DNA from: Candidatus Omnitrophota bacterium
GTDB taxonomy: Bacteria; Hinthialibacterota; Hinthialibacteria; Hinthialibacterales; JAKPRU01
DNA length: 64,000 bases
Assembly: GCA_029570205.1 (NCBI GenBank)
Contig: JAKQSI010000042.1
Location: 52,936-116,935 of the forward strand
Reading direction: 5' to 3'
The translations under genes and the position numbers were made by a program. This document shows positions 3,964-34,000 of the stretch, one piece after another; position 1 is the stretch's first letter; the number at the start of each line of letters is the position of its first letter. The notes beneath the pieces were generated by a model. It had not been told where the DNA came from. It made no database searches and worked only from the letters and a program-made list of their open reading frames with translations.

Positions 3964-5451
3964 ATGATAACACGCAGAAACGTTCGCCTGATAGGAGTTG
4001 CAATCATGACCGCATCCTGGATCGTATCGGGTTGTTCCTCAAGCAATGGAGCGCGAGACCGCGCAGCGGTGTTTGCGGGGTCCTGGTACTCCGGCACGGA
4101 AAAAGAACTGATGGCAGAGGTGGATGGATACTTGGCACAGGCCTCCCTGGTCGGCGCAACAGACCAGCCGCGCCCGGTTGCGCTGATCGCTCCCCACGCG
4201 GGATATCGGGCCGCCGGAACGGTCACCGGATACGCATATAAGGCCGTCCAGGGTATCCCTTACGAGCGGGTTGTGGTTCTGGCCCTCTCGCACGGGTATC
4301 CCTTTCAAGGTGTTTCAATTGACGATGTGGATTCGTACACAACCCCCCTGGGAACTGTTCCGCTGGATATCGAGACCTGCAAGAAGCTCCGCGAGCATCC
4401 GCTGGTGCGGTATGTCCCGGAGGCCAATGCACAGGAGCATTCGCTGGAGATACAAATCCCCTTCCTGCAACGCGCCTTGGGCCATTTCAAATTGATCCCC
4501 ATCACGGTCGGCGATATGAAAGACGCCGAATTTAAAGAGGTTGCAAATCTTCTCAAACCCCTGGCGGATGAGAAAACACTCTTTGTGGCCAGTTCGGATT
4601 TCACCCATTTCGGGCCAAGGTTCCAGTACATGCCGTTTCGGGACAATTTCCAGAAAAATATCGCCCTTCTGGACAAATCCGCCGTCAACGCCATTATTCA
4701 CCTGGATGTCGAAGGATTCAATCGGGTTCTGGAGGAGACGCAAGCTACGATCTGCGGACGGAATCCGATTCGCCTGCTGCTCATGTCCCTTCCGGCGAAT
4801 AGCGAAGGCTGCCTGGTAAAGTACGACACCTCCGGGCGGATTTTCGGCGATCCGAGCAACAGTGTGAGTTACGCCGCCATTGTGTTCCGTGCCTATCCCG
4901 ATTATTTGAATGAAACGGAACAGAAAACTCTGCTGAAATTCGCTCGCGACACCATCGCCGCGTATTTGAAAGGACAGCCTCTGCCGAAGATCCCGCCCGA
5001 GCAACTCACCGAGCGACTGAGAAAACCGAGCGGGGCATTTGTGACCATCCATGTTAAAGAACCGTATCAGCTGCGAGGATGTATCGGGTCGGTTTACGCA
5101 AGCCGTCCGCTTTATGAAGACGTTCAGGAGAACGCCATCAATGCCAGCACACGCGACCCGCGATTCCGCCCGATGACCCCGGATGAACTGGATAATGTAC
5201 AGATTGAGATCTCCGTGCTGTCGGAGATGAAAACGGTAAACAGCTATAAGGACATTGTGCTTGGAACGCACGGAATTGTGCTGAAAAAAGGGATGAACCG
5301 CGCGCTGTTTCTGCCGCAGGTTCCCTGGGAGGTCGGCTGGGAAATCGAAGAGACGCTTTCCCACCTGTCACAGAAAGCGGGATTGAGCGCGGATGCCTGG
5401 AAAGAAGGAGCCACATTCGAGGTGTTCACGGCGCAGGTGTTTCACGAGTGA
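3964..5451 (+). CDS. Predicted lipoprotein, fusion of a Memo-like domain (AmmeMemoRadiSam protein B type) and an AMMECR1 domain (protein A type)
   Basis: 495 aa. The N-terminus has a lipobox (IVSGC). The Memo-like part carries APHAGY..AG, ALSHGYPF, QEHSLEIQIPFLQ and SSDFTHFGPRF. The AMMECR1 part carries GAFVTIH...LRGCIGS and RDPRF.P....EL..V.IEISVLS. Confidence 0.85.
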   Translation: MITRRNVRLIGVAIMTASWIVSGCSSSNGARDRAAVFAGSWYSGTEKELMAEVDGYLAQASLVGATDQPRPVALIAPHAGYRAAGTVTGYAYKAVQGIPYERVVVLALSHGYPFQGVSIDDVDSYTTPLGTVPLDIETCKKLREHPLVRYVPEANAQEHSLEIQIPFLQRALGHFKLIPITVGDMKDAEFKEVANLLKPLADEKTLFVASSDFTHFGPRFQYMPFRDNFQKNIALLDKSAVNAIIHLDVEGFNRVLEETQATICGRNPIRLLLMSLPANSEGCLVKYDTSGRIFGDPSNSVSYAAIVFRAYPDYLNETEQKTLLKFARDTIAAYLKGQPLPKIPPEQLTERLRKPSGAFVTIHVKEPYQLRGCIGSVYASRPLYEDVQENAINASTRDPRFRPMTPDELDNVQIEISVLSEMKTVNSYKDIVLGTHGIVLKKGMNRALFLPQVPWEVGWEIEETLSHLSQKAGLSADAWKEGATFEVFTAQVFHE

Positions 5452-7665: not shown

Positions 7666-8775
7666 TCATCCGACAGGCGTTTCTCGAGGAAGATCTTTCT
7701 TTCGAATGTGTTCGTCCCAATACTGGATCCATTCGGCTCGATCCCGACGAACGACATTCCAGTCGATGGGCATTTTGCGGAGCATGTCCCTGACATCCAC
7801 GCCTCTCAGCCACTCCGGAAGCCGGTCTCCAAGGTCATCCCGCGTGGGAATCCGGTAATAGCCGTTTTTCGGATCGGCCAGATAGAGCTGCATATCGGCG
7901 CTCGTGACGAACTCGACAAACTCTTTGCCGGTCTCCAGGTGGGAACAGCCGCGAATCAGGGCCACCCCCTCGGTCAGGACCGGTGTCCCGCTTTCCGGGA
8001 TGACATAGCCGAGATTGTAATTATACCGATGTCGCTGCACGACCACATCCGGCAGGGTCCATATTGTGATGGCTGCCGGGTTGCCTTCGTTCAGTCGCGC
8101 AAATAAATGATCCGTGTTCTCCGTGTGAGCAAGAACATTGGACTCCAGATTCCGCAGCCATTCGTAGCCTGCATCGGGGTTACCGGAGCTGCCGGAGCGG
8201 GCTTGAATCAGCGCGGCAAATATCTGCCCCATAGCCTCGGTAATGACCGGGTCCTGGATCAGAATGCGGCCTTTCCATTTCGGATTCAGCAGGTCCTCCC
8301 AGTCTCGTGGCGCTTCCCAGTCCGGGATGGCGGCCTTGTTGTATACAATGACAGCCGGCAAAACAAAGGTCCCCAGCCAATAGTAATCCGGGTCACGCAG
8401 GTCCAGGCTGAGATGAGCGGCAACTTCCGCTGCCGGGCATGGGTCCAGCAGGCCATCTGCTTTTGCTTCCATGAACATCAAAGAGGATCCGCCCCACCAG
8501 ACATCACATCGCGGCTGGACTCGTTCTTCCTCGATTTGCCGGAGAATCGCGTGGGATGGAATACTGAAAGAGGTCGTCCGTATCCCAATCTCGTCATTTT
8601 GATGCTGCGCCTCAAACCGGTGTGCAATATCCTCCACGATCTCCAGCCCGTGCGGAGAATACACCACCAGATGATGAAACCGCCTCGGCCCCTTCGAGCA
8701 ACCGCACACAACCAGTCCGGTTCCGATCAGAACCGCCATGAACCGTTTCCACGTCCTGTTCGTTTCGGTACACAT
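7666..8775 (-). CDS. ABC-transporter periplasmic substrate-binding lipoprotein (iron(III)/polyamine-type fold)
   Basis: 369 aa with lipobox LVVCGCS. The pattern LVVYSP......DVWWGG....F, ..AVIVYNK and W.DLLNPKWKGRI is typical of Fbp/PotD-like solute-binding proteins. No permease or ATPase is adjacent. Confidence 0.75.
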   Translation of the reverse strand: MCTETNRTWKRFMAVLIGTGLVVCGCSKGPRRFHHLVVYSPHGLEIVEDIAHRFEAQHQNDEIGIRTTSFSIPSHAILRQIEEERVQPRCDVWWGGSSLMFMEAKADGLLDPCPAAEVAAHLSLDLRDPDYYWLGTFVLPAVIVYNKAAIPDWEAPRDWEDLLNPKWKGRILIQDPVITEAMGQIFAALIQARSGSSGNPDAGYEWLRNLESNVLAHTENTDHLFARLNEGNPAAITIWTLPDVVVQRHRYNYNLGYVIPESGTPVLTEGVALIRGCSHLETGKEFVEFVTSADMQLYLADPKNGYYRIPTRDDLGDRLPEWLRGVDVRDMLRKMPIDWNVVRRDRAEWIQYWDEHIRKKDLPRETPVG

Positions 8776-10349: not shown

Positions 10350-11144
10350 TCATTCGTTTTTACGGATTTCGATCCAGATACCGTAATTGATACCGTCCGA
10401 TCCTTCAGGGCGCGGAATAATGATGGTGTAGGTCTCGATAGCCAAATCCCGCATGATCGTCTCCAATTCCTCGCGGGCTTCCTCGATTGAGTAATTGGGA
10501 AATCCTTTACCTATCTTATTGCCTGTGTCTTCGCCTTTTTTCTTTCTTTCCGCCTGGCTCTTGATCTGGCTCTCGCGAATTTCCCTCGCAATCTCCACAG
10601 GAAGATTTTCGGAAAATCCCCGACCGATATAGGCTACGCCACCCGGTTTCAAAATACGCCAAACCTCCGCGAATCCCGCCTTTTTATCGTCCCAGAAGGG
10701 ATACGACCCGCGCGAGACAGCAATATCCACATAACTATCGCGCAGGGCCATCCATTGCGCATCAGAAAAAATCGCGCTCACCTGGCCCCCAATCCCGGCT
10801 TCCTGCGCTTTCCGAAAGAAATCGGGGAAAACGGACGGATTGATATCGAGGTTGATCCAGTGCATTTTTGGCGAACGCTTACAGAGCTCGATCACTAAGG
10901 ATCCCGACCCGCCTCCGATATCCACACCGATTCCCGATTTGTCTGCGAGGTTGTAATGGGCCACAAGCCATTCCGCCAACGGAGCATAGACCGGCGCCAG
11001 TCGAGAGGGTCCTGTATTGCGAGGTTTTTCCGTGGTCTCCTTCTTGAATTTCTCCGGATTCGGAACTTTTAATATGTCGGCGCCGGCGATGAGACAAAAA
11101 ATCAGTGCGCAAAGAATTGTTGCGGATATTGCGGATTTTCTCAT
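10350..11144 (-). CDS. Class I SAM-dependent methyltransferase with an N-terminal signal peptide or signal anchor
   Basis: 264 aa. The N-terminus is MRKSAISATILCALIFCLIAGA (hydrophobic, positive N-end). Motif I is GVDIGGGSGSL, post-I is an acidic residue (INLDIN), and there is a LKPGG motif. Confidence 0.85.
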   Translation of the reverse strand: MRKSAISATILCALIFCLIAGADILKVPNPEKFKKETTEKPRNTGPSRLAPVYAPLAEWLVAHYNLADKSGIGVDIGGGSGSLVIELCKRSPKMHWINLDINPSVFPDFFRKAQEAGIGGQVSAIFSDAQWMALRDSYVDIAVSRGSYPFWDDKKAGFAEVWRILKPGGVAYIGRGFSENLPVEIAREIRESQIKSQAERKKKGEDTGNKIGKGFPNYSIEEAREELETIMRDLAIETYTIIIPRPEGSDGINYGIWIEIRKNE

Positions 11145-11195
11145 ACGATGATCCTTTCGTATTGCTGGTGTTGTTCGTATTTCCTGTTGCCTGGG

Positions 11196-11343
11196 AAACC
11201 CTCACCCAGCCCTCCCGGGGGGAGAGGGAGCGGCCTTCGCTTTTCTGACAGGCAGTGACGCCTGTCCTGCCAACCCCACCCCGGCCCTCCCTGTAAACGC
11301 GGAGGGAGACACTTCCCCCTGTTTACGGGGAGATTGAGGGGGG
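11196..11343. repeat. Composite repeat block: family B unit, family C unit, family A copy 2
   Basis: 11196-11230 aaaccctcacccagccctcccggggggagagggag is family B. 11246-11270 gacaggcagtgacgcctgtcctgcc is family C (compare 54246-54270). 11272-11343 matches 315-417 (family A) but lacks the middle unit. Confidence 0.8.
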
Positions 11344-11372
11344 TATGAATGCATATACGTCCGGAATCCCCC

Positions 11373-14300
11373 TCACTTCCCCGCGCGAATGGGATGATAC
11401 CGGATGGGATTGCCGTCACGGTCCGTAATTCGAGCGCTGAAACACCACAGACCGCCTGTCTGAGTAATCTTCATGAGAATGGTGTTGATCCCTTTCTTGC
11501 CATGGACCGGCAGGGCATCCTGGTCCGGCTCACAGCCCCGCTCCCCATCATACTCTCCGGCAACCTCACCGTTCCACCAGCATCGGAAGCCATCATTGCT
11601 GCCGACTTTCACATACAAATCCTGGTCGTTCTCCAGGGGAACCTCGGCATACGCATACGCGGACACCCATTCTCCGCCGCCACAGATGCCGACCAGATCC
11701 ACTATGGGCGCATCGCCGACAAATCGCTCCCAGTGTCGTGTGCCCTCGTCCGTGTCATAGGAGAGGCTGACATCTACCGCCGGTTCTCCCACAAAGGCTT
11801 TATCCAGCGGATACTCACCGCCAAAGGGGAACGGCCCGGCCAGAAGCCAGCGTGTAACATACCCCTTTTCCGCCGCATCCTTGCCGACCTCAAAGCCGAA
11901 GTTGTCCAATTTGCTCAAGATGTCTTGTGTCAGGGAACGGGTTGGAGAGATCACACGCGCACGGTTCAGCATTCCGATCGCCTTGGCGGGGTCGGATTTT
12001 CCAATATCATCCGCAACGGCGACATAAACCCGAAGCGCCTGCTCGACAATATCCGAATCCGGCTCACGGTAATTCCACAGCACCGGCGACAAATCCCCGC
12101 AGTACGGCTTGATGATCGATAGAGATTGGGGGGATTTTATCTGGGCCATTTTCTGTAGTGCAGAGACTAGAACAGATTTGGGCCAGGCCGTTGAGGCGGC
12201 AGCATGGTAAAAAACCAACGCGCGATCCCTGTCACCCTGCTCCAACGCTGCATCGGCTAGGGTAATCCATTCCGCAGGTTGTTTCTCTTTCGCAAAATCG
12301 GGTAAGGCTTCGGATGCGCTCTTGGGAACGTCTTCCCGAACCGCTTTCACAAAATTGAGCAGCGGGGCCTGTTCTTTTGTGGGATTCTCCACTTTGGGTA
12401 TCAGTTCGACGGTGAGTGCATTCGAGACCGAAACGCCGGGCAACTCCTTGATGATCGTTTTCTGTTGCCCGGCAGTCTCTTTTGCGGGATCAAAGTTCTC
12501 GGCAACAACCTTTCCCTGGACACGAATATCAAACACACGCTGCCCGATGCGGTCGCTCACCATTGGAATGAATCCGAGCAAAATCGTATACCGGCCCGGT
12601 TCCTCACCCCAGGTATCATCAATGAGCGGAACATCAAACCGCAGCGCACCCAGGCAACCGGATGCGAACAGCCACGGCTTGTCAATGCCTTGGAATCTGT
12701 CCGTGCGGAAGTCCTCGGCAAAATAGCCCATACCGTTGAGAAACTTTTCATTCAGTTTGAACTGCACACCGTACGGGCTTTCGCCGCCGTGACTGGTGTA
12801 CTTTGTGGCAAAGCGGGGATATCCGAACCAGAGGGTCCCGTCATCATCCCGCATGTCGCCCGGCGCGCCGAGATTGATCGCTAACTCCTTGACCGGCGTC
12901 TCAGGACCATGCGCGACAAATACCGTCCAGTCTTTCGGCGTATGGTTTTCCCTGGGCTTGAAAGCCATGGAGCATTTCAGCGGGAACGAACAGGTGCAGC
13001 CGGAACTGGCCTCCGGAAACAGGAGGAGACCATTGGCCGGAATAAGATTGATCCAACATCCGGGGCGAATCGCGCCGAAGAACGAAATGCCCGCATCGTT
13101 GTTCATGTCGTAAAACGCGGCATTGTAAGAGCGATAGAACAGCCCGCTGGGAGCCGCCGAGGTAATGCTGCAACAATGTCCGGGGCGCAGGAACTCCCAC
13201 GGAACTTTCTCGCCGGAAATCGGGTGCGTGCGGGTCTCAATCTCGCCGGTCTCCAGATTACAAGCACGCGGCTCGATAATGACCTTATTGCCGACAAGAA
13301 GAGGCCGACGCAGGTAATTCAGCGGGCGCGACCAACGAACATCCCCCACCGATGCAGACAATGCCGTAATGCGCCGCCATCGCAGCGCACCCTCCTGAAA
13401 TGAGCCTCCGTCATGGTTGCTGAATGTACCGAAGAAAAGCAGCACTCCGTTCTGATATGCGCTTGCAAGCCTGTCTCCCCCGCAGCCGGTGAGATCGACC
13501 GGCTTCTCCCACAGTTTCTTTCCCGTTTTGGCATCGAGCGACACGACCATACGAATGTCCGCCTCCCCGGGCAACAAAGCGGTTTCTTCGCTCTCTTCGT
13601 ACTTCTTCTCATCAATCAGGCGTTTCCGTTCATTCAACGCCAGGGCCTTTTGTTCACCTGTCACATTCTGATGTGCCAGAAACACTTTTCCATCCGCGAT
13701 CACCGGGACAATGTTCGCAAACTTGCCTTCTTTGAAAGTCCATAAAACATCCCCGGTTTTCGCATCAAGCGCAAAGAAACACTCAGAGAGCATGATCCGG
13801 TCGGTCAGAGCGGCTTTCGGCGATTTCTGACTCCCCCAGGCCGGATAGGTGTTCATCTGATGCCACAGTGCGCCGGCACGATGCAGGTCCTGCCAGGCAT
13901 CCCGGTTCGGTTCGGGATATCGCTGCTTGAACGTGTCAAGATATTCCGTATATCGCGAATCCTTTTGTGTTTCGGGAGTCTGCGGAGTTTCTTTCCATTT
14001 TTCGCCGTCCGTCAGATTGTCCCATGTTGATGCGTAGTCGGCTTCCAGCGGATCGGCGACGGAGCCGAACAGGATTTTCCCATCCGAGGAGATATATCCC
14101 CATCGTTTGCGGCCCGAATCGGCGGGTATCGGGAGGGGATAGATATGAACGGTTTCGCCGGTTTCGGGGTCGAGGCGGTGGCATTTGTCGTGCGCGGCGA
14201 CATACAGGGCATCGTCCGTAACAACCAGGTTTCCACCGTCCACATCGACACGGACCCGCACAGCGCCGGGGATTTCCCGCTTCCACAGGAAGGTTCCGTT

Positions 14301-16556
14301 ATAGGCATCGTACGCGCTGATTTCCTCTTCGCCCTGTATAAACAGGCGTCCATCGATGGAGACAGGGGCCATGGAACGCGCGTGACGTTCCACCATACCA
14401 CTCGGTCCCGGTTCGCCGAACCAGAGGACACCCAGCGGGCATTCGACCAGCTGGTCATCGGAACATGCGGTGTTCTGAGAATTGCCGTACAGCTCGCGCC
14501 AGGAACCGGCTTTCTCAAGCGGCTTGCGCTTTCCACACAGAGTGCAGATACCGGCGCCCTTTTCCGCAATCATCATGGATATATCGCCAATTGACGCGCT
14601 GGAATCCTGGAATTCCTGCATCTTTGATTCCTGAGCGATAGGCGAACGAAAAAAGATGGCTCCCCCGTCGGGACGAAGAACGCGGGATATCTCTCTGGCA
14701 TTCAATTCTGCTTCCCCACTTGTTACGGTGGAATCATAGACAATCAGATTGGCGAAATAATCCGGCAAGTCCCGAATATCCCAGTTCTCGACGATTATCT
14801 TTGTTCCGTAGAGAGCCGCGCCATCGAGTTTCGCTTTGGCGTTTTGGACGTTTTGTGGATCGGAGTCGATGGCAATCACAAACATCTCGGATTGCCGCGC
14901 GATCTCATAAGCCAAGTGCCCGTCCCCGCACCCCAGAACGAGGCAATAGCCTTTACGGACGGAGGACTGCGTGAAGACATCCTTCGCAAAAGACTGGTAG
15001 TCCTTTGAGAGCCTGTCCCCCTTGTACGGAGTCTCTTCGATTTTCGCCGTGCGCTTGCCGGGATTCTTGGGAGCGCCTTCGGTGAAACAGGAAACCGAGC
15101 CGTCATTCGAGCTGACAAGGAGTTTTCCATCGGAGACTGCCAATCCGGCAACCTCACCGGAGACACTGCCTTTCCATACCTCTTTGCCGTTCGTGATATC
15201 CAGCGCGATCAGCGATTCCTTGCCGCCGAGAATTAAGGTCTGTCCGGCCAAGGCCATCACATTGAAATTCTTTGCGGGGGCAAACCAGCGGCAGGCGGCC
15301 GATTTCAACTGCCCCTGCTCTTGCTGAATGGCTTTCATTCTCGAAGAGATTTGGGCGATTTCTTCATTTACGGAGTCTTTGGTTGCCTGATCCGCCTGCG
15401 CCAGCTTCGCCCGCAGATCGGCAATCCGTCGTCGGATGTTGGCTTCTTCCGACGCCAGCTCCTGCAAGCGCTTGTTGATTTCGGGGTATTTCACCCGGTC
15501 GATTGCGTAAACACCCTCCGGTGTAAGAACAAACGAGTTCTCCGGAGTAACTACAAGATCAACGCCTGGGAACCACGCGTATGGTTCGCCGAGTCGTTGT
15601 CCGGTTCCATCCTCGTAGGAAACTTTGGCCGGAGTGCCGGAAAGATCAACGCCGGCAATTAACTCATTCCGATCCAGCAGCACCCACGTGCCGCCGACCT
15701 TGCCGCCCGGATTGAGATAGAAAAGAAACTCGCCATTTCTCCGACTGAATCCGGCAGGCATGGCACGGCTCGAAGGCACATAAAGGACCTCTTTCGATAC
15801 AACCAGGTATCCCTGGGGCGAGATTCCGCCGAAGTTGAGTTCATGTGCCCGGTCTCCGATGGTGTCGTTTTTCCAAATGACCTCGCCGGTTTCGGCGTTG
15901 AGCGCATAAATCTGAATCCCTTCATAGGGAAACACACCGGCGGCGAAATACGCAATACCGTCATCCACCAGGACATTCGTGCGAACCGGCCAGAGCGAGA
16001 TCATACGGCCGTTCCCCAGAACCTTCCGGTTGCTGGGGCCTGCGCGGAACTTCCAGACAATCTCACCATTCTGCGCGGACAGGCAATAAACATAACCGTC
16101 ATCGGAGCCGACATAAACATTCCCGTTCGAGATAGATGGGGCCAGCCGCACGGGGCCATCGGTGAACCGGGTCCACCGGATCTCGCCGGTTTCCGCATCA
16201 AGCGCGTATACCTTGTTGTCTACCGAGGAACCAAAATACGCGATCCCATCCGCGACAGTAACCTGATAGGCGCTGTCGAAACGCATTCGGGGAAGTTCCT
16301 CCGCCGGTTCGTACCAGGCCGGTTTCGGAGCATGGGGAGTCCGGTATTCCCAGGCGAATGAGAGCGGCGGTTTGATCCCTTGTGAAGTGACGGCATGTTG
16401 GGCGCTGTCGTGACGATAGGTCGGCCAGTTCTCCCCGCAAGCATCATCGGCTGTTATGGCGGAAAACCAGAGACAGACGGCTAAAAAGGCGAAAAACATC
16501 CCCACGGGCTTCATGAGAAAAAATCTGTGGAAATTCATTCTCGGGTCTCCGATCAT
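11373..16556 (-). CDS. Giant exported multidomain protein: PQQ/BamB-type beta-propeller repeats, coiled coil, embedded class I methyltransferase fold, second propeller region, malectin-like module, helical region, C-terminal beta-sandwich-like module
   Basis: 1,727-aa ORF with an N-terminal hydrophobic signal. It has many PQQ-like blades (VYALDAETGEIRW, VYCLSAQNGEIVWKF, IYALNAETGEVIWK, FFALDAKTGDVLWTF, VVSLDAKTGKKLWE). The methyltransferase motif I LVLGCGDGHLA lies at about 14901-14951. The malectin-like signature GRYTILLGF....IGQRVFDIRVQGKVVAENFDP lies at about 12390-12790. Confidence 0.9.
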   Translation of the reverse strand: MIGDPRMNFHRFFLMKPVGMFFAFLAVCLWFSAITADDACGENWPTYRHDSAQHAVTSQGIKPPLSFAWEYRTPHAPKPAWYEPAEELPRMRFDSAYQVTVADGIAYFGSSVDNKVYALDAETGEIRWTRFTDGPVRLAPSISNGNVYVGSDDGYVYCLSAQNGEIVWKFRAGPSNRKVLGNGRMISLWPVRTNVLVDDGIAYFAAGVFPYEGIQIYALNAETGEVIWKNDTIGDRAHELNFGGISPQGYLVVSKEVLYVPSSRAMPAGFSRRNGEFLFYLNPGGKVGGTWVLLDRNELIAGVDLSGTPAKVSYEDGTGQRLGEPYAWFPGVDLVVTPENSFVLTPEGVYAIDRVKYPEINKRLQELASEEANIRRRIADLRAKLAQADQATKDSVNEEIAQISSRMKAIQQEQGQLKSAACRWFAPAKNFNVMALAGQTLILGGKESLIALDITNGKEVWKGSVSGEVAGLAVSDGKLLVSSNDGSVSCFTEGAPKNPGKRTAKIEETPYKGDRLSKDYQSFAKDVFTQSSVRKGYCLVLGCGDGHLAYEIARQSEMFVIAIDSDPQNVQNAKAKLDGAALYGTKIIVENWDIRDLPDYFANLIVYDSTVTSGEAELNAREISRVLRPDGGAIFFRSPIAQESKMQEFQDSSASIGDISMMIAEKGAGICTLCGKRKPLEKAGSWRELYGNSQNTACSDDQLVECPLGVLWFGEPGPSGMVERHARSMAPVSIDGRLFIQGEEEISAYDAYNGTFLWKREIPGAVRVRVDVDGGNLVVTDDALYVAAHDKCHRLDPETGETVHIYPLPIPADSGRKRWGYISSDGKILFGSVADPLEADYASTWDNLTDGEKWKETPQTPETQKDSRYTEYLDTFKQRYPEPNRDAWQDLHRAGALWHQMNTYPAWGSQKSPKAALTDRIMLSECFFALDAKTGDVLWTFKEGKFANIVPVIADGKVFLAHQNVTGEQKALALNERKRLIDEKKYEESEETALLPGEADIRMVVSLDAKTGKKLWEKPVDLTGCGGDRLASAYQNGVLLFFGTFSNHDGGSFQEGALRWRRITALSASVGDVRWSRPLNYLRRPLLVGNKVIIEPRACNLETGEIETRTHPISGEKVPWEFLRPGHCCSITSAAPSGLFYRSYNAAFYDMNNDAGISFFGAIRPGCWINLIPANGLLLFPEASSGCTCSFPLKCSMAFKPRENHTPKDWTVFVAHGPETPVKELAINLGAPGDMRDDDGTLWFGYPRFATKYTSHGGESPYGVQFKLNEKFLNGMGYFAEDFRTDRFQGIDKPWLFASGCLGALRFDVPLIDDTWGEEPGRYTILLGFIPMVSDRIGQRVFDIRVQGKVVAENFDPAKETAGQQKTIIKELPGVSVSNALTVELIPKVENPTKEQAPLLNFVKAVREDVPKSASEALPDFAKEKQPAEWITLADAALEQGDRDRALVFYHAAASTAWPKSVLVSALQKMAQIKSPQSLSIIKPYCGDLSPVLWNYREPDSDIVEQALRVYVAVADDIGKSDPAKAIGMLNRARVISPTRSLTQDILSKLDNFGFEVGKDAAEKGYVTRWLLAGPFPFGGEYPLDKAFVGEPAVDVSLSYDTDEGTRHWERFVGDAPIVDLVGICGGGEWVSAYAYAEVPLENDQDLYVKVGSNDGFRCWWNGEVAGEYDGERGCEPDQDALPVHGKKGINTILMKITQTGGLWCFSARITDRDGNPIRYHPIRAGK

Positions 16557-17228
16557 CTATGTTGAGGATGGGTTTTCGACGATTTCACCTCCCCGCAGAA
16601 AGACAATTTGATTCGCATACTGGTCCGCCGAATGCCCGTGGGTCACCACAATCACCGTGCCCCCTTCCCGTTGGAACTCGTGCAGGTGGCGAATCACCTC
16701 CTCGGCGTTTTCGGGATCGAGATTGCCGGTGGGTTCATCGGCCAGAAGGATGGAGGGCCGATTCATCAGCGCGCGGGCAATTGCAGTGCGCTGTTTTTCG
16801 CCTGCGCTCAGTTCGGCAGGCTTATGAAACTCGCGGTGAGAAAGTCCCAGATTCTTGAGTAATTCCCGTGCCCGTTCACTGGACTCTGCATTCCGCTCGA
16901 ACCCCGATGCCAGAAGGACATTCTCCAGCACGTTCAAATAGGGAATCAGGTGAAACATCTGGAAGACAAATCCGATATTCTTTGCCCGGAACTGCGCCCG
17001 TTCCAGTTCATTCATTGCGGAGATTTCCTGGTTGTTCACGGTGACTCGTCCGGTTGTGGGACGCATCATTCCACCGATGGTCAACAGCAACGTGCTCTTG
17101 CCACTTCCGCTCGGCCCGCGAACAACAAGAAATTCCCCTTGCCGAACATGCAGATTGATATTGTGAATGGCGCGGACCTCGTTTCGGCCCACTCGGAAAG
17201 TTTTACTTACATTTTCGAGAAGAACCAT
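16557..17228 (-). CDS. ABC transporter ATP-binding protein (MacB/LolD/FtsE-like)
   Basis: 223 aa with Walker [10 protein letters not shown], signature LSAGEKQR, Walker [13 protein letters not shown] and an H-loop VTHG. Its stop codon abuts the start codon of the giant gene. Confidence 0.93.
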
Positions 17229-17230
17229 GA

Positions 17231-18385
17231 TTATTCCTCCCTCAGCGTAACAGCGGGATCCTCCGTAACCGCGACAACCGCCGGAATGAAACTGGACAGC
17301 GCCGTAAATGTCGGCGCAACCAGCAGCGACCAGGTGAGCAGTGAGTAAATCGGACGAATCGACTTCGCGGTTACTTTGAAAACTTGCGGCCCGAAACTCA
17401 TCGCAAAAGCGGTCCCCAGAAAGAATCCGATGGCCGCTCCGATCAGCCCGATGATGATGGCCTTGCCCAGGAACAGCGCAGCGATTCGGAAAGAACCATA
17501 TCCCAGCGCGCGCAAAACCCCGATTTCAAACCGGCGTTCCCGCACATTCAGGAACGCCAACGCGCCGATCCAGATTGCGCAGCCGACCAACACAAGGGGC
17601 AACAACCGCGCGAAAAACCGCTCAAGCATAAACCGCTGCTCCCGACGCGCATCGGAAATCGCTTTGAGTTGGATCACCTTGCCCTCCGGCAGCACTTGTT
17701 CCAGCTGAGATCGTAACCGATCCAGAGGATCACCGGGTTCCTTGCACAGGCATTCCAGCGCTTGGATCTCATTGATCCGGCCATCGAGGTTCAGAATACT
17801 CTGTATATCTTTCAGGTGACCGTAGATTCGGATGTCGTCATCGCTGCCCGTTTCCGGCAGACAGGAGGCTACCTGGAACGGCTTACCGAAAAGATCCACC
17901 ATATCGCCATTCTTCACCCCCGTTTTTTGTACCAGTTCGTATCCGAGATACACTTTGCCCGGTTCCACCGCAAACGGAATCATGGAGGATTCCACCACCC
18001 CTTTCGGTACGACTTCCTTTGCGGCAATACCGGTCAGAAGAACCTCCATTCCCTGCCAGGTGACTTTTTGCTGAAGAGTCGCCAGCAGATGTCGATACTG
18101 AATCTCGTCCTGTGTCTTCTCAGCAAACCGAAGGACATAATCCTCCGGCATGGTGTAATCGGAAAATCCGGTCTCCCAGAACTTAATCATGTCCGTTTCT
18201 TTCGGAATGATGCGCAGGTTATAGCCGATGTCGCGCATCAGGCGTGTGGTCTCGCGCTGAGAATCCTGCGCGCTCGTGAAAAAGGCGACATACACCGCCA
18301 CCGCAGTAACTACTGCCAGCAGGCTGAGAACAAAGTTATATTCCCGGTGAGTGATTTCTTTGAGAATCAGCAGTAGCGTTGACAT
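17231..18385 (-). CDS. ABC transporter permease, FtsX/MacB family
   Basis: 384 aa with TM1, a roughly 220-aa extracytoplasmic domain, then three TMs containing the FtsX-type RRFEIGVLRALG motif. There are 2 nt between its stop and the ATPase start. Confidence 0.88.
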   Translation of the reverse strand: MSTLLLILKEITHREYNFVLSLLAVVTAVAVYVAFFTSAQDSQRETTRLMRDIGYNLRIIPKETDMIKFWETGFSDYTMPEDYVLRFAEKTQDEIQYRHLLATLQQKVTWQGMEVLLTGIAAKEVVPKGVVESSMIPFAVEPGKVYLGYELVQKTGVKNGDMVDLFGKPFQVASCLPETGSDDDIRIYGHLKDIQSILNLDGRINEIQALECLCKEPGDPLDRLRSQLEQVLPEGKVIQLKAISDARREQRFMLERFFARLLPLVLVGCAIWIGALAFLNVRERRFEIGVLRALGYGSFRIAALFLGKAIIIGLIGAAIGFFLGTAFAMSFGPQVFKVTAKSIRPIYSLLTWSLLVAPTFTALSSFIPAVVAVTEDPAVTLREE

Positions 18386-18432
18386 GATACCCTTTCCCTG
18401 AAATCACCCATAAACTGGGTGACTGATCTGTT

Positions 18433-19662
18433 TCATTTTGATCCAAGTCCTCTTCGAACAGCGATCACAATCCCCACCAGAATAACAACCCCAAATCCGG
18501 CGATTGTCCAGAGGACTGTTCGAGTATAGAGGTCAGGTTTCCGTTCCTCGGAAGATGGAGGATCGATTGCCCGCGACGGAACAGGCTGCTCGACAACCGG
18601 CGCAGACTCGGCTCCGAACTCCACAACCTGCTCGCTGTATCCGAACAGAGGATCCGTGTTCGGATTCTCGGAAGATATTCCCACCGTCTCCCCGGACAGG
18701 CCGGAAGCCAGTATCTGGCCGATCTCCATTTTCACCATCGGGTTCTCCGCATCAAAACCGGCCGATTCGATCACTTGCGATCGCATGGTGGAATCCCAAC
18801 GGAGAGGCACAGGCATCCCCATAATCAGGCTCCGGTCCAGGCCGCATTCGCACGATGCGCCAACCAGCCCAAGCAACGAAAAAAGGCGGCTTTCAACAAT
18901 CTCGTCTCGGTGCAAAACCGGCCCCATCCTGCGCCCTCTTCCGTACAGCGCCACGACATGAGGATCGTTTAATGCTTCCTCATCGAGATTCATACCCCAC
19001 AACAACACTTGCTCATTCGGAAATGATTTTGGAGAAATCCGAACCAGGTAAGGATTCACCTCCACAGGTTTCGGCAATTGGTCTGCCAATCCGGTGATCC
19101 GCTCGATAGCACGTTGAATGTGCTGCAAGGCCCGCTGATTCGCTTCCGCATCTTGTCCCTCGATCAGAAGAACAACGCAGTATGATTTCACGAGATGCTC
19201 CAGGATGTCCCGGCGGACCGGAGAATCACAGGCCTGCTCGAGGGATGTCATTAAAGAGTCCGATGTTTCGGCAATGGGGAGCAACAGGGACCTTCCATCC
19301 GGCGCAACAAGAACACAGGCGGGAGATTGGAGATTCTGCCCTGAGGGAAAATATCGGAGCGCGGGATGATCCGGCTCGCTGTCCGTGCGGACAATCTCAG
19401 GCTGGATATTGGAGTCCATCAGGGCAACCAGCGCGGCCCTGTCGAACGCCTCGATTCGAGCCGGGGGAGTTTGGTCCCCGACGAAGCAATAGAGATGGTA
19501 CAAATCGCCCGGGAACTGAACAAACCCGACATCGCGAACCGTATATCGGCAGGCATGGGCGTGCGAAACGAAGAAGAGCAGCACAAAGAAAACTGCCGGG
19601 AAAAACGCAGATGTCTTGGGAATCATACATAACATTATCCGAAGGAGTGTGGCGAGGGTCAA
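18433..19662 (-). CDS. Hypothetical envelope protein with a signal peptide and a C-terminal transmembrane anchor
   Basis: 409 aa. The N-terminal hydrophobic segment ends SHAHA-C and is followed by CRYTVRDVGFV. The C-terminal TM is VLWTIAGFGVVILVGIVIAV, followed by RRG. I recognise no family. Confidence 0.7.
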   Translation of the reverse strand: MTLATLLRIMLCMIPKTSAFFPAVFFVLLFFVSHAHACRYTVRDVGFVQFPGDLYHLYCFVGDQTPPARIEAFDRAALVALMDSNIQPEIVRTDSEPDHPALRYFPSGQNLQSPACVLVAPDGRSLLLPIAETSDSLMTSLEQACDSPVRRDILEHLVKSYCVVLLIEGQDAEANQRALQHIQRAIERITGLADQLPKPVEVNPYLVRISPKSFPNEQVLLWGMNLDEEALNDPHVVALYGRGRRMGPVLHRDEIVESRLFSLLGLVGASCECGLDRSLIMGMPVPLRWDSTMRSQVIESAGFDAENPMVKMEIGQILASGLSGETVGISSENPNTDPLFGYSEQVVEFGAESAPVVEQPVPSRAIDPPSSEERKPDLYTRTVLWTIAGFGVVILVGIVIAVRRGLGSK

Positions 19663-19675
19663 GGAAGAGGAACCA

Positions 19676-20489
19676 ATTGACTCATATTAAAGCTTACCGA
19701 AGGGAGAGAGAAAAGAGGATCGTTGACTCATAATTGAGGATACCGAGAAACGAGGTGTCGGAAATTATGAGTGGCATGTTGAGAAAAGAATATTTAAGAG
19801 AGATATGCGGGTGGACGGAGAATCGAGCGACGTGGAATCGGGGCGCGCGAGGCGTTCTGACTCAGATTCAGGACATGGAAACCTCCCTGGTGTTTCCGAT
19901 TCTGGGGTTTGATTGCGACAACGGTTCCGAGTTTCTGAATTATCATCTGTTCCGGTATTGGACCGGTCGGAACTCCCCGGTCTCGTTTACACGCGGTCGT
20001 CCGTATCATACCAATGACAGTGCGCACGTCGAGCAAAAGAATTGGACCCATGTTCGCCAATTATTGGGCTATGATCGGTTCAGTAATCCGGATTTAGTGG
20101 AACCGATCAACGGTCTCTACGCCCACGAGTGGAGCCAATTCCAGAATTTCTTTTGTCCCACCTTGAAACTCGAAAGCAAGGAACGGATCCACTCCAAAAT
20201 ACGGCGCCGGTACGGGAAACCACAGACACCCGCCGAACGTCTGCTGGAGTGTCCGGATGTGACCTGTGAGGCCAAACAGCGTCTTCGGGACACCCTGCGT
20301 TCCCTGAATCCGTTCCAGCTTCGGGAAGCCATTGAACGGAAACTCAAAATGATTTTCAATCTTCGTGAGGAAACGAAATATGGGTCAGCGATTTGCTCTG
20401 AACGGGTGTTTAACTCCAGTCGGCCTACGGCCTCCTTCCGTTAAACACCCGTTCACTTACCCCTTCGGTAAGCTTTTCCCATGAGTCAA
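19676..20489 (+). mobile_element. Internally deleted insertion-sequence remnant bounded by imperfect terminal inverted repeats
   Basis: The left end TTGACTCATATTAAAGCTTACCGAAGGG (19676-19703) is the inverted match of the right end CCCTTCGGTAAGCTTTTCCCATGAGTCAA (20461-20489). Between them lies only the C-terminal part of an rve-type transposase. Confidence 0.65.
19734..20444 (+). pseudogene. Truncated DDE (rve/integrase-core) transposase, N-terminal part missing
   Basis: The 236-aa ORF begins at TTG right after an in-frame TAA. It contains FDCDNGSEF and RGRPYHTNDSAHVEQKNWTHVR (second D and E region of a DDE core), but no first catalytic D region and no HTH domain. Confidence 0.7.
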
Positions 20490-20550
20490 CGCGGTACAGA
20501 AATGTAAACTATAGTGTACAGAATAATGTGCAGAATAGCAACCCACGCAT

Positions 20551-20584
20551 AAAAAAACGGGAGACCGAGCGGTCTCCCGTTTTC
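20551..20584. terminator. Bidirectional rho-independent terminator (serves trpB2 on the minus strand)
   Basis: Perfect 9-bp stem CGGGAGACC (20558-20566) / GGTCTCCCG (20571-20579) with loop GAGC, flanked by AAAAAAA upstream and TTTT downstream. Confidence 0.8.
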
Positions 20585-20612
20585 CTTCAAGAGATCAATC
20601 CTGTATGGCCGA

Positions 20613-29842: not shown

Positions 29843-31006
29843 TTAATTCCCCTTCACTCCCAAAACCGTAATAACCGGCAGATCCTCCGGCTCAAACCAG
29901 GCATGGGAACACCGGATCTCCACCACGTTCCGGCCCGCCCGCAAAATGCCCTGGGTTTCATAGTCCGAGGGGCTGCCCATATTGACCTCAATTGTTCCAC
30001 CGGGTGTGCCGTTCAGAAAGATGGACAGTTCCATCTTCTCTGTGTGAAGGCTGTCCGGTTGAAGAGTCAGCGCCGACCGCCGACCTTCCAGTTGTGTTCC
30101 CGCCACAAACTCCATCATACACCCGGCAGGCCAGGTGAATGACACCGACTCGATTCCCGCGGAAGCCACAAAAGCCTTGGCGGGGTTGAAAAGTATCCCG
30201 TCGGTGACCGGAGGCTGTGTCCCCGTTATGTCCGCCAGCGCCCAGGCCGCCACCGGATCCTCCTCGGCCTGCGGTTGCAGGGCCGCAATCGCTTTCGGTC
30301 GGTCTGCAAGACGAAGGTATGATCTGCCGAGAACCGTTCCGGTTGTACAGTGGATACTTCCGGCAATTTGCACAATGGTTTTGGCGGTCTCCTCGTCCGG
30401 CTCCCAGGGGTGAAATGTAAGCGCGGTACACCAGGCCGGGTAGGCTTCATCCCACCGTTCCAGTCTCGTAAGAATTTCTGCCCGGTTTTTACATGCCCGG
30501 ATTGCCGGTTGATTTGATACGCAGGCAATCACACCCGCATACCATTGCAGCGCAGATTCGGGATTCTGATCCCGATCCAGATCTCCCAGCAGAAACTGTC
30601 CCTCTCCCTGTCCAACCCCGGCATCCAGCTCCACCGCTTGTTTAAATTGCTCTCTGGCTCTCTCAAGGTCCCCCGACTCGTTCCGCTTTAAAAAAAGGAG
30701 TCCCATCTTGTGATGTACTGTTGCCACTGCCGCCCGATGCCGGGCGGAATTCGTCTTCTCCATCTGTTCCCGGTAAAACGTAAGGGCATCGTGATAGGCT
30801 CCCAAAGCGTCCTCGTATCGCCCCTGCTGTTCCAGGTCGCTGCCTCGGACCATCCCCAGGCTGGGTTGATTCCTTTCTGTTGCGAGAAACCAGTCGGGAT
30901 GATCGGCCAAATAAAGAAAAATCGGGAACAGCACAACCAGAAGAATCCCCCAGGCAATCAGCGCATGACGGTTTGATGGGCCGGGAAGGGGATTGGATGG
31001 GTTCAT
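29843..31006 (-). CDS. Membrane-anchored TPR protein with a C-terminal beta-rich domain
   Basis: 387 aa with one N-terminal TM (ALIAWGILLVVLFPIFLYLA) and TPR-like helices (GRYEDALGAYHDALTFY, LERAREQFKQAVELD). Its start overlaps the stop of the upstream C25-like gene by 4 nt. Confidence 0.75.
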   Translation of the reverse strand: MNPSNPLPGPSNRHALIAWGILLVVLFPIFLYLADHPDWFLATERNQPSLGMVRGSDLEQQGRYEDALGAYHDALTFYREQMEKTNSARHRAAVATVHHKMGLLFLKRNESGDLERAREQFKQAVELDAGVGQGEGQFLLGDLDRDQNPESALQWYAGVIACVSNQPAIRACKNRAEILTRLERWDEAYPAWCTALTFHPWEPDEETAKTIVQIAGSIHCTTGTVLGRSYLRLADRPKAIAALQPQAEEDPVAAWALADITGTQPPVTDGILFNPAKAFVASAGIESVSFTWPAGCMMEFVAGTQLEGRRSALTLQPDSLHTEKMELSIFLNGTPGGTIEVNMGSPSDYETQGILRAGRNVVEIRCSHAWFEPEDLPVITVLGVKGN

Positions 31007-34000
31007 TGATTTGCCTTGAGCGGTATGCGGGCGCGGTTGTTCTTGAACGTCTCTTCGTCGATGACCTCGTCGGGATCGGCGGCCACTTCAAACCAGGCGG
31101 CACGGTCCGTCACTCGAACCCGGTGCGCCGACCTCTGTCCCCCCGCCGGAATGGACCAGATGTCCAAAGTAATCGACTGCTTCGGTGATCCGTCATCAAA
31201 TCCCACGGTAATCTGAATCACCGCATCCTTCGCATCTGTGTCCCCGATATTATGAACAGTAAAATCGATGATATACTGCCCCCGCTCCGCGTCGTGCCGG
31301 ACCTGGATATCCTTTTCCTCCACCGCCAGATCGACTTTCTTCACCACATTGATTTCCAGCCGGGCGGAGTTATCCTCTTCGTGCGATTCCACTACACTGC
31401 CGAACGGATCGCACTGGAATATCAGGACGTTCTTCCCCGAATTATCAACGGGATCCCAGCGAAGTGTCACCACACGGCTTGCCCCGGGAACCAGCGCCGG
31501 AACAACCGCCGCACTTTGACCGACCAGATTCCGAACCTCCCCGGCAAGTCCTGCAACCCCTTCCAGGCTCGCGTTGAGAATAGTCTCCCGCGAGCTCGCA
31601 TCCCCGTTATTCAACACCGGTATATCGAAATACACCGTCATTCCATTCTCGGGACGCGGCGGCCGATAAACAATTTCGTTTTCCAGAATCGTTAGATTCG
31701 GTGTCCCTGATCCGACTCGCGGCGTAACAGGCTTCGGCATAACCATCACCGTTCCACCGTGGATTATCCCTTCTGCCAAAAATGCAGTCGCCCCGAATGA
31801 AAAATGACGTTCCTCGTTCCAGTATGGGCCGCACAATTGCCCCAGAGATAGTGTTCCTTCTGCCGGCCAGTCTTTTGGAGTAACAGTGTTTTCCCACAAA
31901 GGCCGAAACACGCTGTCCCGAAGCCACAGATTCGCCGTGGCATCCGGGACCGGCGGCTCAACCCGGTATTTGAGGAACCCGCCGGAATCCACAGTTGCAT
32001 CCAATGAAACATCCTTCGGCCACTTTTGGGGAATAGGCAGTTCGAACAACGGATCTCCCAGAATGCAGAATTGCTTTTGCGGCTCGAATGAGGGCCTTTC
32101 GGCCAGCGCAATCAGGCACGAGGCGACATAAGCCTTGCAAAGGTTCCTTATCCCGCGATGGAACACCGCATCGTGCATCCCCCGCGCCAGAGTCGAATGG
32201 TCCACCGGATATCCTCTGCCGGTCGCCGCCAGAACGCTGATCGCCCCGCCTGTCGGTCGGGTCAGCAGGTCTTCCGCAATGGAGATATTCCATTTCTCCT
32301 GTGCATAATCGAATGTCCCGGTCTGGCACGTAAAACCCCAGAACACTGTAAGCATATTCTTGTTCGTCAGACGCTTCGCCTCGCTGAATCTCGACCCGCC
32401 CGCGAAAAATACACGCTCCTGTGTCATCACATTCGGCGCGCCATGCCCAAAAAACTCCCACAGGACCGCGCCCCGGTTTAATGCCTCAATCACTGCGTTG
32501 GTCGCTTCGGGGCTGGTTTTGCACTTCAATTCTCTCCGCACGTCTTCCGGCAGGTAATAATTGTCCCGGAACGGGTAGTCGGCCACGCGAATTTCCGTCA
32601 CCTCATACCCCGGCGGAAGCCAGGTCAAAGACACTTCGTCCATTCGATCTTCAAAGTCGTTATCGGTCAGAAGCAGTACACGGTTCATCCATTCCTGTGA
32701 GGCGGTTCGAGGATAATGGACGTTCCGGTCGATCATGACCTCCAGGTCTGTCGCCGAGCGGATCGGGTATCGCGCAACAAGCATCTCCGGCAGCGTATCG
32801 TCCGGTGTCAGGCAACCAAACCAGTTCTCGTCCGGGTAATCTTCCTCTCCGCGATAGGCCGGAAGGAAATTCGCAATCCCATTCTTGTATCGTCCCCAAT
32901 GGTCCCAGGTTGCATCCCCGACCAGGAGAACGTAGCCGGGCCGATGATCGGGAGTCCGACGGTAAACCCAAGTGAGGTATTTCTTGATATTGTGCGGCGA
33001 CATGCGCCCGTCGCCAAAAATAGCCTCGATCTCCTCAAGCGTTGCAATGTGCGGTTCGAATCCCCTTGCCCGATAATCCGCGCAAAGTGGGAGCAGATTC
33101 CGACTGAACCTCCGGGGCGTCACAATGATGACATCCACAGGTCCCTTCGGAACCAGCGGATGGTTCTCCGGCAACACGGCGGGCATGAATTCGCAGGTCT
33201 TTACCGGGGATACACGGGCCGGATCGAAGATGACCAATTCCTCGTTCGCCGATGCGTCTGTGACTATGGCCGCGCCGGGTTTCAGATATCGGCTGCTCCG
33301 CACGATTCCGTTCTCCGGTATGTGCCACAACATCGCATCCGATAATGCTTTGGACTGGATTCGGTATCGGCCCTGTTCCGGCTGGAACCGAACCGGGTCT
33401 CCCGCATAAAAAGCCTGACGCTCGAATTTGAATTCGATTCGATCCAGGTAAATGGCATATTCCTTCTCATCGGGCGGCGCAGTTCGAATTTCGAGCAGAT
33501 TGGTTCCCGCCAAAAGGGAAGCCGATGCAATTCGCGCTGCCGCCGTAAGAAACGGCGCGGTTCCCTGTTCGATAATTGTCTCCAGCGAGGCCCCGTTTAT
33601 CAGGAACGAAAACCCCCCGTCGGAGTTCTTGTAGAAATGCCGTTTCTGTAACAGTCGCGCCGAAACAGTCACATCGGAGACCAATCCCGCAAAGTCGGGG
33701 CACGCCATCGCGGCCGATTCATCGGGAAGTTTTTTCCAGATCCAATAATCCGCTTGGGCCTCATTCTGCTTGCCTTCGGGGAAATGGTCCAGATCCTCCT
33801 CCAGACGGCAAATCGTTCGAATGCTGTCCAACGGTGGAGAGCTGGAGCGTATCTCCGGCTCTCCATGAATCGTCTCGCCCTGCAATCCACACAGCCAATA
33901 GACCGACTCGCGCGAATAAGGCGATGTGGATTTCTTGGCCCAAAACAGGATTTCATCCCCTTGATCCAAAGTTCCCTCATACTTCGGTTCCCCCGCCTTG

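Follow-up and report, generated by a model that had tools for sequence, protein, structure and literature searches.

In a 64,000-nt stretch of a Candidatus Omnitrophota genome (assembly GCA_029570205.1, contig JAKQSI010000042.1, positions 52,936 to 116,935; hereafter the window), five consecutive, closely spaced genes occupy positions 10350-19662 of the minus strand. Four of them form a conserved module present in more than 400 uncultured bacterial species from about ten phyla. The module encodes an ATP-binding cassette (ABC) permease and its ATPase, a membrane-tethered thioredoxin-fold protein and a giant exported protein that combines beta-propellers with a methyltransferase fold. We propose, with a probability of roughly 0.45, that the locus encodes a dedicated and previously undescribed type VII (MacB/FtsX-class) ABC mechanotransduction system. 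The permease would dock a helical hairpin of the giant with the tethered protein alongside, and the ATP cycle, together with chemistry at Cys-x-Cys motifs, would fold, isomerise or switch the giant.

A listing of open reading frames (ORFs) and direct reading placed the five genes where a preliminary description of this DNA had put them. From the 3' to the 5' end of the cluster, all on the minus strand, they encode a small exported methyltransferase (10350-11144, 264 aa), the giant (11373-16556, 1727 aa as an ORF), the ABC ATPase (16557-17228, 223 aa), the FtsX-type permease (17231-18385, 384 aa) and the thioredoxin-fold protein (18433-19662, 409 aa when counted from TTG 19662). The tight junctions reported in the preliminary description were likewise found on direct reading: the ATPase stop codon (TAG, 16559-16557) abuts the giant ATG (16556-16554), 2 nt lie between the TAA that ends the permease gene and the ATPase ATG, with GGAGG upstream, and 47 nt separate the thioredoxin-fold gene from the permease gene. 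Copies of the locus on 13 public metagenome contigs are identical. Gene calls on these contigs start the thioredoxin-fold protein at ATG 19626, giving 397 aa, and the giant at ATG 16538, giving 1721 aa with GGAG 8 nt before it; 16538 is the likely start of the giant.

Pattern scans were run twice on a set with one genome per species; 367 and then 424 genomes encoded a relative of the 409-aa protein. Loci were translated in six frames and searched with the window proteins, yielding 130 non-redundant loci. Sixty-four of these extended at least 5 kb to either side of the 409-aa homologue; we refer to them as full loci and count as neighbours genes within 7 kb. The expectation that the 409-aa protein and the giant would be linked to an FtsX-type ABC pair in other genomes was borne out, with the permease present in 57 full loci, the giant in 58, both in 52 and at least one in 63. 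An exported methyltransferase-fold protein lay near the core in 52/64. In 51 of the first 82 loci the permease gene came immediately after the 409-aa-family gene, with both on one strand, and the orders thioredoxin-fold-FtsX-ABC-giant, giant-thioredoxin-fold-FtsX-ABC and thioredoxin-fold-giant-FtsX-ABC were all seen. Pfam-labelled gene calls revealed the same cluster in a Phycisphaerales chromosome, a Poribacteria metagenome-assembled genome (MAG) and a 125-kb contig, and searches that started from giant homologues met the thioredoxin-fold-FtsX-ABC triad directly upstream on two of three long contigs. Because the arrangement recurs in 130 unique loci from many phyla, it lies far beyond chance. 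These data strongly indicate that the ABC pair is genetically tied, in most cases through genes that overlap or abut, to the tethered thioredoxin-fold protein and to the giants.

Host lineages include Planctomycetota (Phycisphaerae, Sedimentisphaerales, Pirellulales), Verrucomicrobiota, Omnitrophota, Aminicenantes, KSB1 and Calditrichota, as well as Poribacteria, Hydrogenedentota, Bacteroidota, Gemmatimonadota and Cloacimonadota. No cultured host was found among the 160 best loci, all of which derive from MAGs or single-amplified genomes. Full-text literature searches on the gene combination, on exported methyltransferases and on type VII ABC partners yielded no description of the system, and family models gave none, in agreement with the earlier impression that this is not a described combination. 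PADLOC models of anti-phage defence returned generic methyltransferase, ATPase and LolE-TM domain matches only, and none for the thioredoxin-fold protein.

The permease is of the FtsX/MacB/LolC class according to Pfam, hydropathy and a profile search of the PDB. Hydropathy places four transmembrane helices at residues 18-36, 261-279, 301-319 and 355-373, with a family-specific periplasmic domain of 224 residues (37-260; 17606-18277, minus strand) between helices 1 and 2. Pfam FtsX matches the C-terminal part (264-374) and MacB_PCD matches weakly; the best solved relatives, MacB, LolC/E/F, YtrF and YbbP, align with the membrane part only. Permeases of the family are 47-61% identical across phyla. 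Their periplasmic domain carries an invariant Cys-Leu-Cys (C212, C214; 17744-17752, minus strand): it does not vary in the permease alignment, and 96/96 unique permease ORFs have a CxC at this site, which reads CLC in 79 of them. The ATPase is of the LolD/FtsE/MacB type (ABC_tran, E 7e-36) with intact Walker A (GPSGSGKST), signature (LSAGEKQR), Walker B (ILLADE) and H-loop motifs. A four-helix permease with a large periplasmic domain and a cognate ATPase with intact motifs is, as read from sequence, the type VII ABC architecture. Some genomes hold two copies of this motor, often together with two giants; loci L031 (2-1953, minus strand) and L068 (3996-5976, minus strand) have a second FtsX/ABC pair of the same subfamily, with the periplasmic CxC, less than 10 kb from the first.

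The pair matches none of the established systems of its class with which it was compared. The highest-scoring curated models for the ATPase were LolD (212 bits), FtsE (201) and MacB (187), those for LolD and FtsE falling below their equivalog cut-offs. The permease reached 40 bits against the LolC/E model TIGR02212 (cut-off 362) and 18-22 bits against the LolE and LolC models. LolCDE orthology is ruled out by these scores and by the single permease gene, which leaves no LolC/LolE pair. FtsEX orthology is ruled out by 16 bits against FtsX_Gneg (cut-off 255) and 201 bits against FtsE (cut-off 265), and membership in MacAB-TolC by the absence of an HlyD adaptor or TolC-type duct from the five proteins and from the identified conserved neighbour clusters. 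The preliminary description was right that the five proteins contain no HlyD, TolC or substrate-binding domain; a gene for a PhnS-like binding protein does lie nearby, at 7666-8775. That the pair is a housekeeping LolCDE, FtsEX or MacAB motor set beside unrelated genes by chance fits its generic domain class and is otherwise highly improbable, given linkage across about ten phyla, scores far under curated cut-offs, the lack of HlyD or TolC, a family-specific periplasmic domain with an invariant CxC, and second pairs of the same type in L031 and L068. The preliminary description would also have been refuted if this were the sole LolCDE or FtsEX orthologue of the genome; the permease scores, the family-specific periplasmic domain, the single permease gene and the second pairs in L031 and L068 speak against that.

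The 409-aa protein had no Pfam match even at E = 10, none in NCBIfam or PADLOC, and nothing in the PDB by sequence (best E 0.49). Its family (about 400 residues; 727 representatives of 50%-identity clusters at E<=1e-30) is named only "hypothetical protein" in the source annotation, with no domain annotation. The signal peptide and C-terminal anchor noticed at the outset are both kept across the family. Structure prediction with AlphaFold2 (predicted local distance difference test, pLDDT, 80.5; predicted template modelling score, pTM, 0.71) and Foldseek identified this exported, C-terminally anchored protein (18433-19626, minus strand; 397 aa from ATG 19626) as one with tandem thioredoxin folds. 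The model consists of two complete thioredoxin folds, each a beta-alpha-beta-alpha-beta-beta-alpha unit, followed by a helical region, a disordered linker and a transmembrane helix. Foldseek ranked ERp57 bb', protein disulfide isomerase (PDI), ERp44, QSOX and calsequestrin highest (E 2e-6 to 1e-4), at TM-scores of 0.2-0.36 that are low because domain orientations differ.

The signal peptide of this protein (19549-19626, minus strand) ends in a signal-peptidase-I-type site directly before an invariant cysteine, Cys26 (codon 19549-19551). Among 210 family members, position -3 is A, V, S, T or G in 186 and position -1 is A, G or S in 203, and position -2 is mostly bulky. Since -3 and -1 fit signal peptidase I and -2 suits a lipobox poorly, the mature protein most likely begins with the invariant cysteine, giving the predicted N-terminus CRYTVRDVGF; a lipobox at this cysteine was ruled out on the same grounds. 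Domain 1 (residues ~43-131; 19234-19500, minus strand; delimited by AlphaFold2 secondary structure and invariant columns) and domain 2 (~151-255; 18862-19176, minus strand; Gly157, Asn163 and Pro222 invariant) both lack CXXC, and domain 2 bears an Arg-rich YGRGRR loop (18928-18945). Judging from the canonical fold and the order of secondary-structure elements, the invariant Pro102, which precedes strand 3, and Pro222 would occupy the cis-proline position. No CXXC active site appears in alignments of the family, whose invariant cysteines are C26 and C259-x-C261. The latter form a Cys-Glu-Cys-Gly motif (18841-18852, minus strand) invariant in two alignments, and 184/210 members fit the pattern CxCG[LMI][DE]. 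Aligned family motifs are Cys-RY-x-VRD-x-GF, YGRGRR, Cys-Glu-Cys-Gly-Leu-Asp and GFD-x-ENP-x-VK. The chain ends (18445-18696, minus strand) with a low-complexity linker of variable length (311-365; pLDDT <50), a transmembrane helix (~367-394) and a basic tail; 209/210 members have the C-terminal hydrophobic stretch.

The giant is arranged as a Sec signal peptide, propeller 1 with a hairpin, a class I methyltransferase fold, propeller 2 with a Cys/His cluster, a malectin domain, a TPR-like stretch and a C-terminal part. More than 2,500 proteins belong to its family at E<=1e-10; they are ~45-55% identical to the window giant across phyla and bear no database names other than "PQQ-binding-like beta-propeller repeat protein" or "BamB family". 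BamB orthology was ruled out (90 bits against TIGR03300, cut-off 285), the fold alone being in common. By hydropathy, the sole hydrophobic segment of the window giant is residues 18-36, and its homologues have Sec or lipoprotein signal peptides, a mature start of DWPTYRHD and no consistent twin-arginine motif. A twin-arginine translocation (Tat) signal, which would permit cofactor loading in the cytoplasm and for that reason was considered, is only loosely suggested by the N-terminus HRFFLMK and was rejected, as homologues carry ordinary Sec or lipoprotein signals.

Propeller 1 (residues 43-500; 15057-16430, minus strand) is eight-bladed and BamB-like, with residues 40-500 modelled at pLDDT 82.8 and pTM 0.83. 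Foldseek matched it to BamB (E 3e-19, target-normalised TM 0.70-0.75) and also to tetrathionate hydrolase. Protruding from the propeller sequence is a modelled antiparallel helical hairpin (helices ~357-385 and 390-421; 15294-15488, minus strand), whose helices span 318-346 and 351-382 of the modelled fragment, about 30 residues each at pLDDT ~90. Anchor blocks derived from the window giant detected an insertion of 51-93 aa at this site in 49/49 measurable giants, and a separate alignment detected one in 44/54. Propeller 2 (residues ~690-1200; 12957-14489, minus strand) matches Pfam PQQ_2 in four stretches and is closed by a conserved cluster, GH-x-C, RPGCW and GC-x-C (12990-13181, minus strand; defined by alignment), with PE..GCxC in 66/71 giants and RPxCW in 52/71.

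Between the propellers lies a class I S-adenosylmethionine (SAM) methyltransferase-fold domain (residues 520-655; 14592-14999, minus strand; Pfam Methyltransf_25, _31 and _11). The window giant has an intact motif I, LVLGCGDG (14919-14942, minus strand), and IDSD, with the acidic residue after strand 2. Giants in general retain the class I pattern as a whole, yet about one third of the aligned homologues have a degenerate motif I. The best solved relative of this domain, 3dlc, is uncharacterised. The malectin domain (residues 1260-1379; 12420-12779, minus strand; PF11721, E 9e-12), of a glycan-binding type, is limited to long-form giants, and some homologues have PA14 or NPCBM instead or additionally. 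For the C-terminal region (residues 1420-1727; 11376-12299, minus strand) Pfam yielded a weak TPR_14 match (E 3e-4) and nothing further, leaving a domain without assignment; this region varies among homologues, with low alignment occupancy. One locus (L092, 4136-15031) encodes a giant paralogue with no detectable methyltransferase domain and no adjoining FtsX/ABC genes. Its neighbours encode a radical SAM/SPASM protein, a protein resembling the alpha subunit of hydrazine synthase and a propeller protein that also has cytochrome c domains; another locus, L091, likewise has a cytochrome c/propeller gene nearby, together with a gene of the URO-D family.

A conserved Cys-x-Cys is thus common to all three periplasmic parts: Cys-Glu-Cys in the thioredoxin-fold protein, Cys-Leu-Cys in the permease and GC-x-C in the giant. 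Two of the parts are also joined in one natural fusion, the 1541-aa metagenomic protein P0322, which consists of the thioredoxin-fold protein and a short-form propeller/methyltransferase giant. It runs from the thioredoxin-fold part through the transmembrane helix, a basic loop (RSKRGKQ) and a second hydrophobic segment, formerly the giant signal peptide, into the giant. Such a membrane hairpin is consistent with a topology that would keep both parts periplasmic; a sequencing or gene-calling artefact could also account for the fusion. The preliminary description had cast the 409-aa protein as a possible periplasmic adaptor and the giant as the likely target of the ABC pair. This idea, still an inference, gains indirect support from the thioredoxin-fold model, the giant hairpin, the shared Cys-x-Cys and the fusion.

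In type VII systems, ATP hydrolysis in the cytoplasm moves a periplasmic domain that acts on a partner (PMC12646458, PMC7668044), as when EnvC binds two FtsX periplasmic domains by an antiparallel coiled coil (PMC7668044). YbbAP-TesA provides a precedent for a type VII ABC paired with a periplasmic enzyme (PMC12646458), and Cys-x-Cys motifs in CsgC, the thioredoxin-fold protein YphP and CGC peptides have redox potentials like those of PDI (PMC3173608). By analogy, a permease dimer would grip the giant's hairpin in the manner of FtsX on the EnvC coiled coil, and the PDI-like protein would be held beside the permease by its own transmembrane helix. ATP-driven motion and thiol-disulfide (or metal) chemistry at the Cys-x-Cys sites would then fold, isomerise or switch on the cysteine-rich giant, whose methyltransferase fold and glycan-binding modules would go on to act in the envelope. 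The architecture, folds, motifs, predicted export and gene linkage are observed; all physical contacts, a redox role of the cysteines and the output activity are inferred.

Several points weigh against this mechanism. Docking of the hairpin by the FtsX-type permease is proposed by analogy only, and no correlation between hairpin and FtsX was found: four full loci have a hairpin giant and no FtsX within 7 kb, and hairpin-less giants were too few for a comparison. The conserved cysteines could simply be structural disulfides. The permease is not nearby in 7 and the giant in 6 of the 64 full loci, and a link to a ModABC-like importer in 18/64 is left unexplained by the model. The periplasm has no known source of SAM for exported methyltransferase folds; for this reason, and because motif I is degenerate in about one third of giants, the output activity is uncertain. 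Nor is SAM-type methyl transfer known in bacteria from the periplasm or the cell surface. The bolder proposal, that this is the first type VII ABC motor to power extracytoplasmic thiol-disulfide (or metal) chemistry and folding, as an ATP-driven PDI-like foldase or activator of a giant client that itself carries out such methyl transfer there, is one that we hold with considerable doubt.

A rival reading centres on the methyltransferase folds. The small enzyme is a class I SAM methyltransferase with a signal peptide at residues 4-22 (Pfam Methyltransf_11 and _25), a DIGGGSG motif I of the D-x-G-x-G-x-G type (10902-10922, minus strand) and LDIN. In related loci, 12/12 homologues carry either a signal peptide or a lipobox, and in all of them the motif is intact; its best solved relative is again 3dlc (E 6e-21). 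Signal peptides predict that the methyltransferase folds of both the giant and the small enzyme are exported. The ABC pair might pull a hydrophobic or lipid-linked molecule from the inner membrane and offer it to these folds for modification, as in YbbAP-TesA, where a type VII ABC feeds a periplasmic enzyme (PMC12646458), or as in LolCDE, with the thioredoxin-fold protein as carrier or receiver. The exported methyltransferase-fold protein beside the core in most full loci agrees with such a hand-off, as do a minimal, giant-free Poribacteria operon (L007, 10001-13798) of the order thioredoxin-fold-FtsX-ABC-methyltransferase and the weak best named matches of the small enzyme, which are quinone (UbiE/MenG) methyltransferases. 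Extraction nonetheless appears rather unlikely to us: it faces the same lack of a known periplasmic SAM source and the same degenerate motif I, and it leaves the hairpin, the three-part Cys-x-Cys and the thioredoxin folds unexplained. The preliminary description had counted the small methyltransferase as a component of the system; since it adjoins the core in only 8/64 full loci, it is better regarded as accessory.

Other accessory genes could speak for the handling of an oxyanion, metal or metalloid. A ModA/ModB/WtpC-like importer occurs in the same gene string in 17-18 of the full loci, a MoeB/ThiF-like adenylyltransferase in 9 and a small TauE-like membrane protein (~135 aa) in 11. Such strings, often forming one operon with the core, are found in L088 (5422-10005) and also in L006, L008, L026, L034, L044, L051, L053, L069 and L091; ModA, often duplicated or fused in these loci, scores 105 bits in L088, above the curated cut-off of 62.5. 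These neighbours point to a possible link between the core system and molybdate, tungstate or sulfur-anion handling, and the ModABC-like association keeps a metal or oxyanion reading alive. The cysteine triad and the Arg-rich loop, which may recall ArsC, and the giant's Cys/His cluster would then bind a thiophilic species (Mo, W, As, Se or a sulfur oxyanion). Its transfer or insertion into the propeller would be driven by the ABC pair, much as NosDFY-NosL serves nitrous oxide reductase, and the methyltransferases may methylate it. The family-invariant Cys1 of the mature thioredoxin-fold protein, its Cys-Glu-Cys and its YGRGRR suit this role, as does the resemblance of propeller 1 to tetrathionate hydrolase, although that match reflects a common propeller fold only. 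The importer is missing from most loci, and no ModABC-like, MoeB-like or TauE-like gene is present in the window; Pfam and NCBIfam detected no metal-binding family in the five proteins. We consider metal or oxyanion handling unlikely.

A Lol-like role, in which the ABC pair releases the giant from the inner membrane by detaching its N-terminal anchor and hands it on outwards, is slightly less likely again. Giants of Bacteroidota and Calditrichota do have lipoprotein-type signal peptides, the closest solved permeases include LolC, LolE and LolF, and a cell-surface location is suggested by the malectin, PA14 and NPCBM modules. An ordinary Sec signal peptide is the rule among giants, however, and the system has a single permease gene, scores far under the Lol cut-offs, no LolA-like or LolB-like gene among conserved neighbours and a thioredoxin-fold component that Lol lacks.

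The spacer between the giant and the small methyltransferase (11145-11372, minus strand) is 228 nt long, as first described, but is not repeat-filled: a palindrome search found short G+C-rich imperfect palindromes and no long repeats, and RNA folding gave a z-score of -2.3 only. One palindrome, CTCCCTGTAAACGCGGAGGGAG (11287-11308), recurs with 2 mismatches in another intergenic region (329-350), with zero copies expected by chance, and is possibly a REP-like element of small size. A 7-bp inverted repeat, TCACCCA gttta TGGGTGA, lies in the 47-nt gap that precedes the permease gene (18386-18432). Sigma-70 promoter and terminator scans of the cluster gave matches at chance level. A sigma-54 promoter, looked for because an NtrC-type regulator adjoins, had no match near the operon start, and an Rfam scan found no RNA element in the five-gene cluster. 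Directly upstream on the opposite strand is an ORF (19734-20444, plus strand) with no Pfam, NCBIfam or PADLOC match; its sequence, judged by eye, resembles the core of a DDE transposase or integrase in truncated form (DNGSEF ... RPYHTNDSAHVEQKN). It lies between the cluster and a gene for a pyridoxal-phosphate enzyme that ends with a strong hairpin and T-run at ~20550-20590.

Other genes of the window are those of an ordinary chromosome and encode HflX, MiaA, TruA, MgsA, FeoB, acetolactate synthase, anthranilate synthase, a sulfatase and esterases. A 6S (SsrS) RNA gene lies at 45666-45847 on the minus strand (Rfam 71.6 bits, gathering score 46.4), and because a 311-aa ORF (45015-45950) overlaps it, that ORF is probably spurious. 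Three further proteins of the window were noted. A 1,247-aa protein (31003-34746, minus strand) combines a gingipain-type Peptidase_C25 domain with a CARDB domain and is followed by a TPR protein; a 342-aa protein (59796-60824, minus strand) with a class I methyltransferase domain and a PRMT-type oligomerisation subdomain resembles protein arginine methyltransferase; and a 495-aa protein (3964-5451, plus strand) fuses Memo-like and AMMECR1 domains in one chain.

Type VII ABC systems are among the few routes that bring the energy of ATP into the ATP-free periplasm, and their known partner types are a handful: EnvC-like proteins (EnvC, PcsB, RipC), LolA, MacA-TolC and TesA. The system described here, widespread in poorly known and mostly uncultured lineages, adds two candidate partner families that have no Pfam or NCBIfam model, the tethered tandem thioredoxin-fold protein and the propeller/methyltransferase giants, the latter about 50% identical across phyla. 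It raises the questions of whether ATP hydrolysis can be coupled to redox folding in the periplasm and of what role exported SAM-methyltransferase folds have where no SAM is known.

Among characterized systems, FtsEX-EnvC, along with FtsEX-PcsB and FtsEX-RipC, is a close parallel: a type VII pair with one permease gene, a partner that is, or here would be, regulated instead of a substrate that is transported, and a coiled-coil hairpin in EnvC comparable to that modelled in the giant. It differs in that the permease here is no FtsX orthologue and carries a Cys-x-Cys alongside a thioredoxin-fold partner, and in that FtsEX partners are LytM or CHAP activators, whereas the partner here is a propeller/methyltransferase giant of ~1,700 aa with no evident link to cell division. 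YbbAP-TesA likewise sets a gene for a dedicated periplasmic enzyme alongside a type VII ABC, but YbbP is duplicated (804 aa versus 384 aa here) and TesA is a small hydrolase, unlike the thioredoxin-fold and methyltransferase-fold partners of our system. LolCDE-LolA and MacAB-TolC belong to the same permease and ATPase class and provide the closest solved structures; the present system has no second permease gene, LolA, HlyD adaptor or TolC, and its periplasmic domain is unrelated in sequence.

The partner proteins also have recognizable counterparts. Two consecutive thioredoxin folds without CXXC are known from PDI b-b', ERp57, ERp44 and calsequestrin, and a redox-active CxC from YphP and CsgC, the Cys-x-Cys of the thioredoxin-fold protein being of that kind. 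PDI-type proteins share no sequence similarity with our protein, which is bacterial and has a C-terminal helix anchor and a mature N-terminal Cys, and its CxC follows the second fold, away from the canonical active-site position. BamB and PQQ_2 propellers have the eight-bladed fold of propeller 1, but BamB is a lipoprotein of ~390 aa in the BAM complex, whereas the propeller here is a module of a giant that also contains a hairpin, a methyltransferase fold and malectin. NosDFY-NosL offers a functional analogy, as an ABC system and a small anchored chaperone that serve the maturation of a periplasmic propeller protein, nitrous oxide reductase; it differs in its ABC-2 permease class and partner folds, and the present locus has no copper or Nos genes. 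Collectively, these comparisons place the locus in a known kind of system, with partners and a shared Cys-x-Cys signature that are new.

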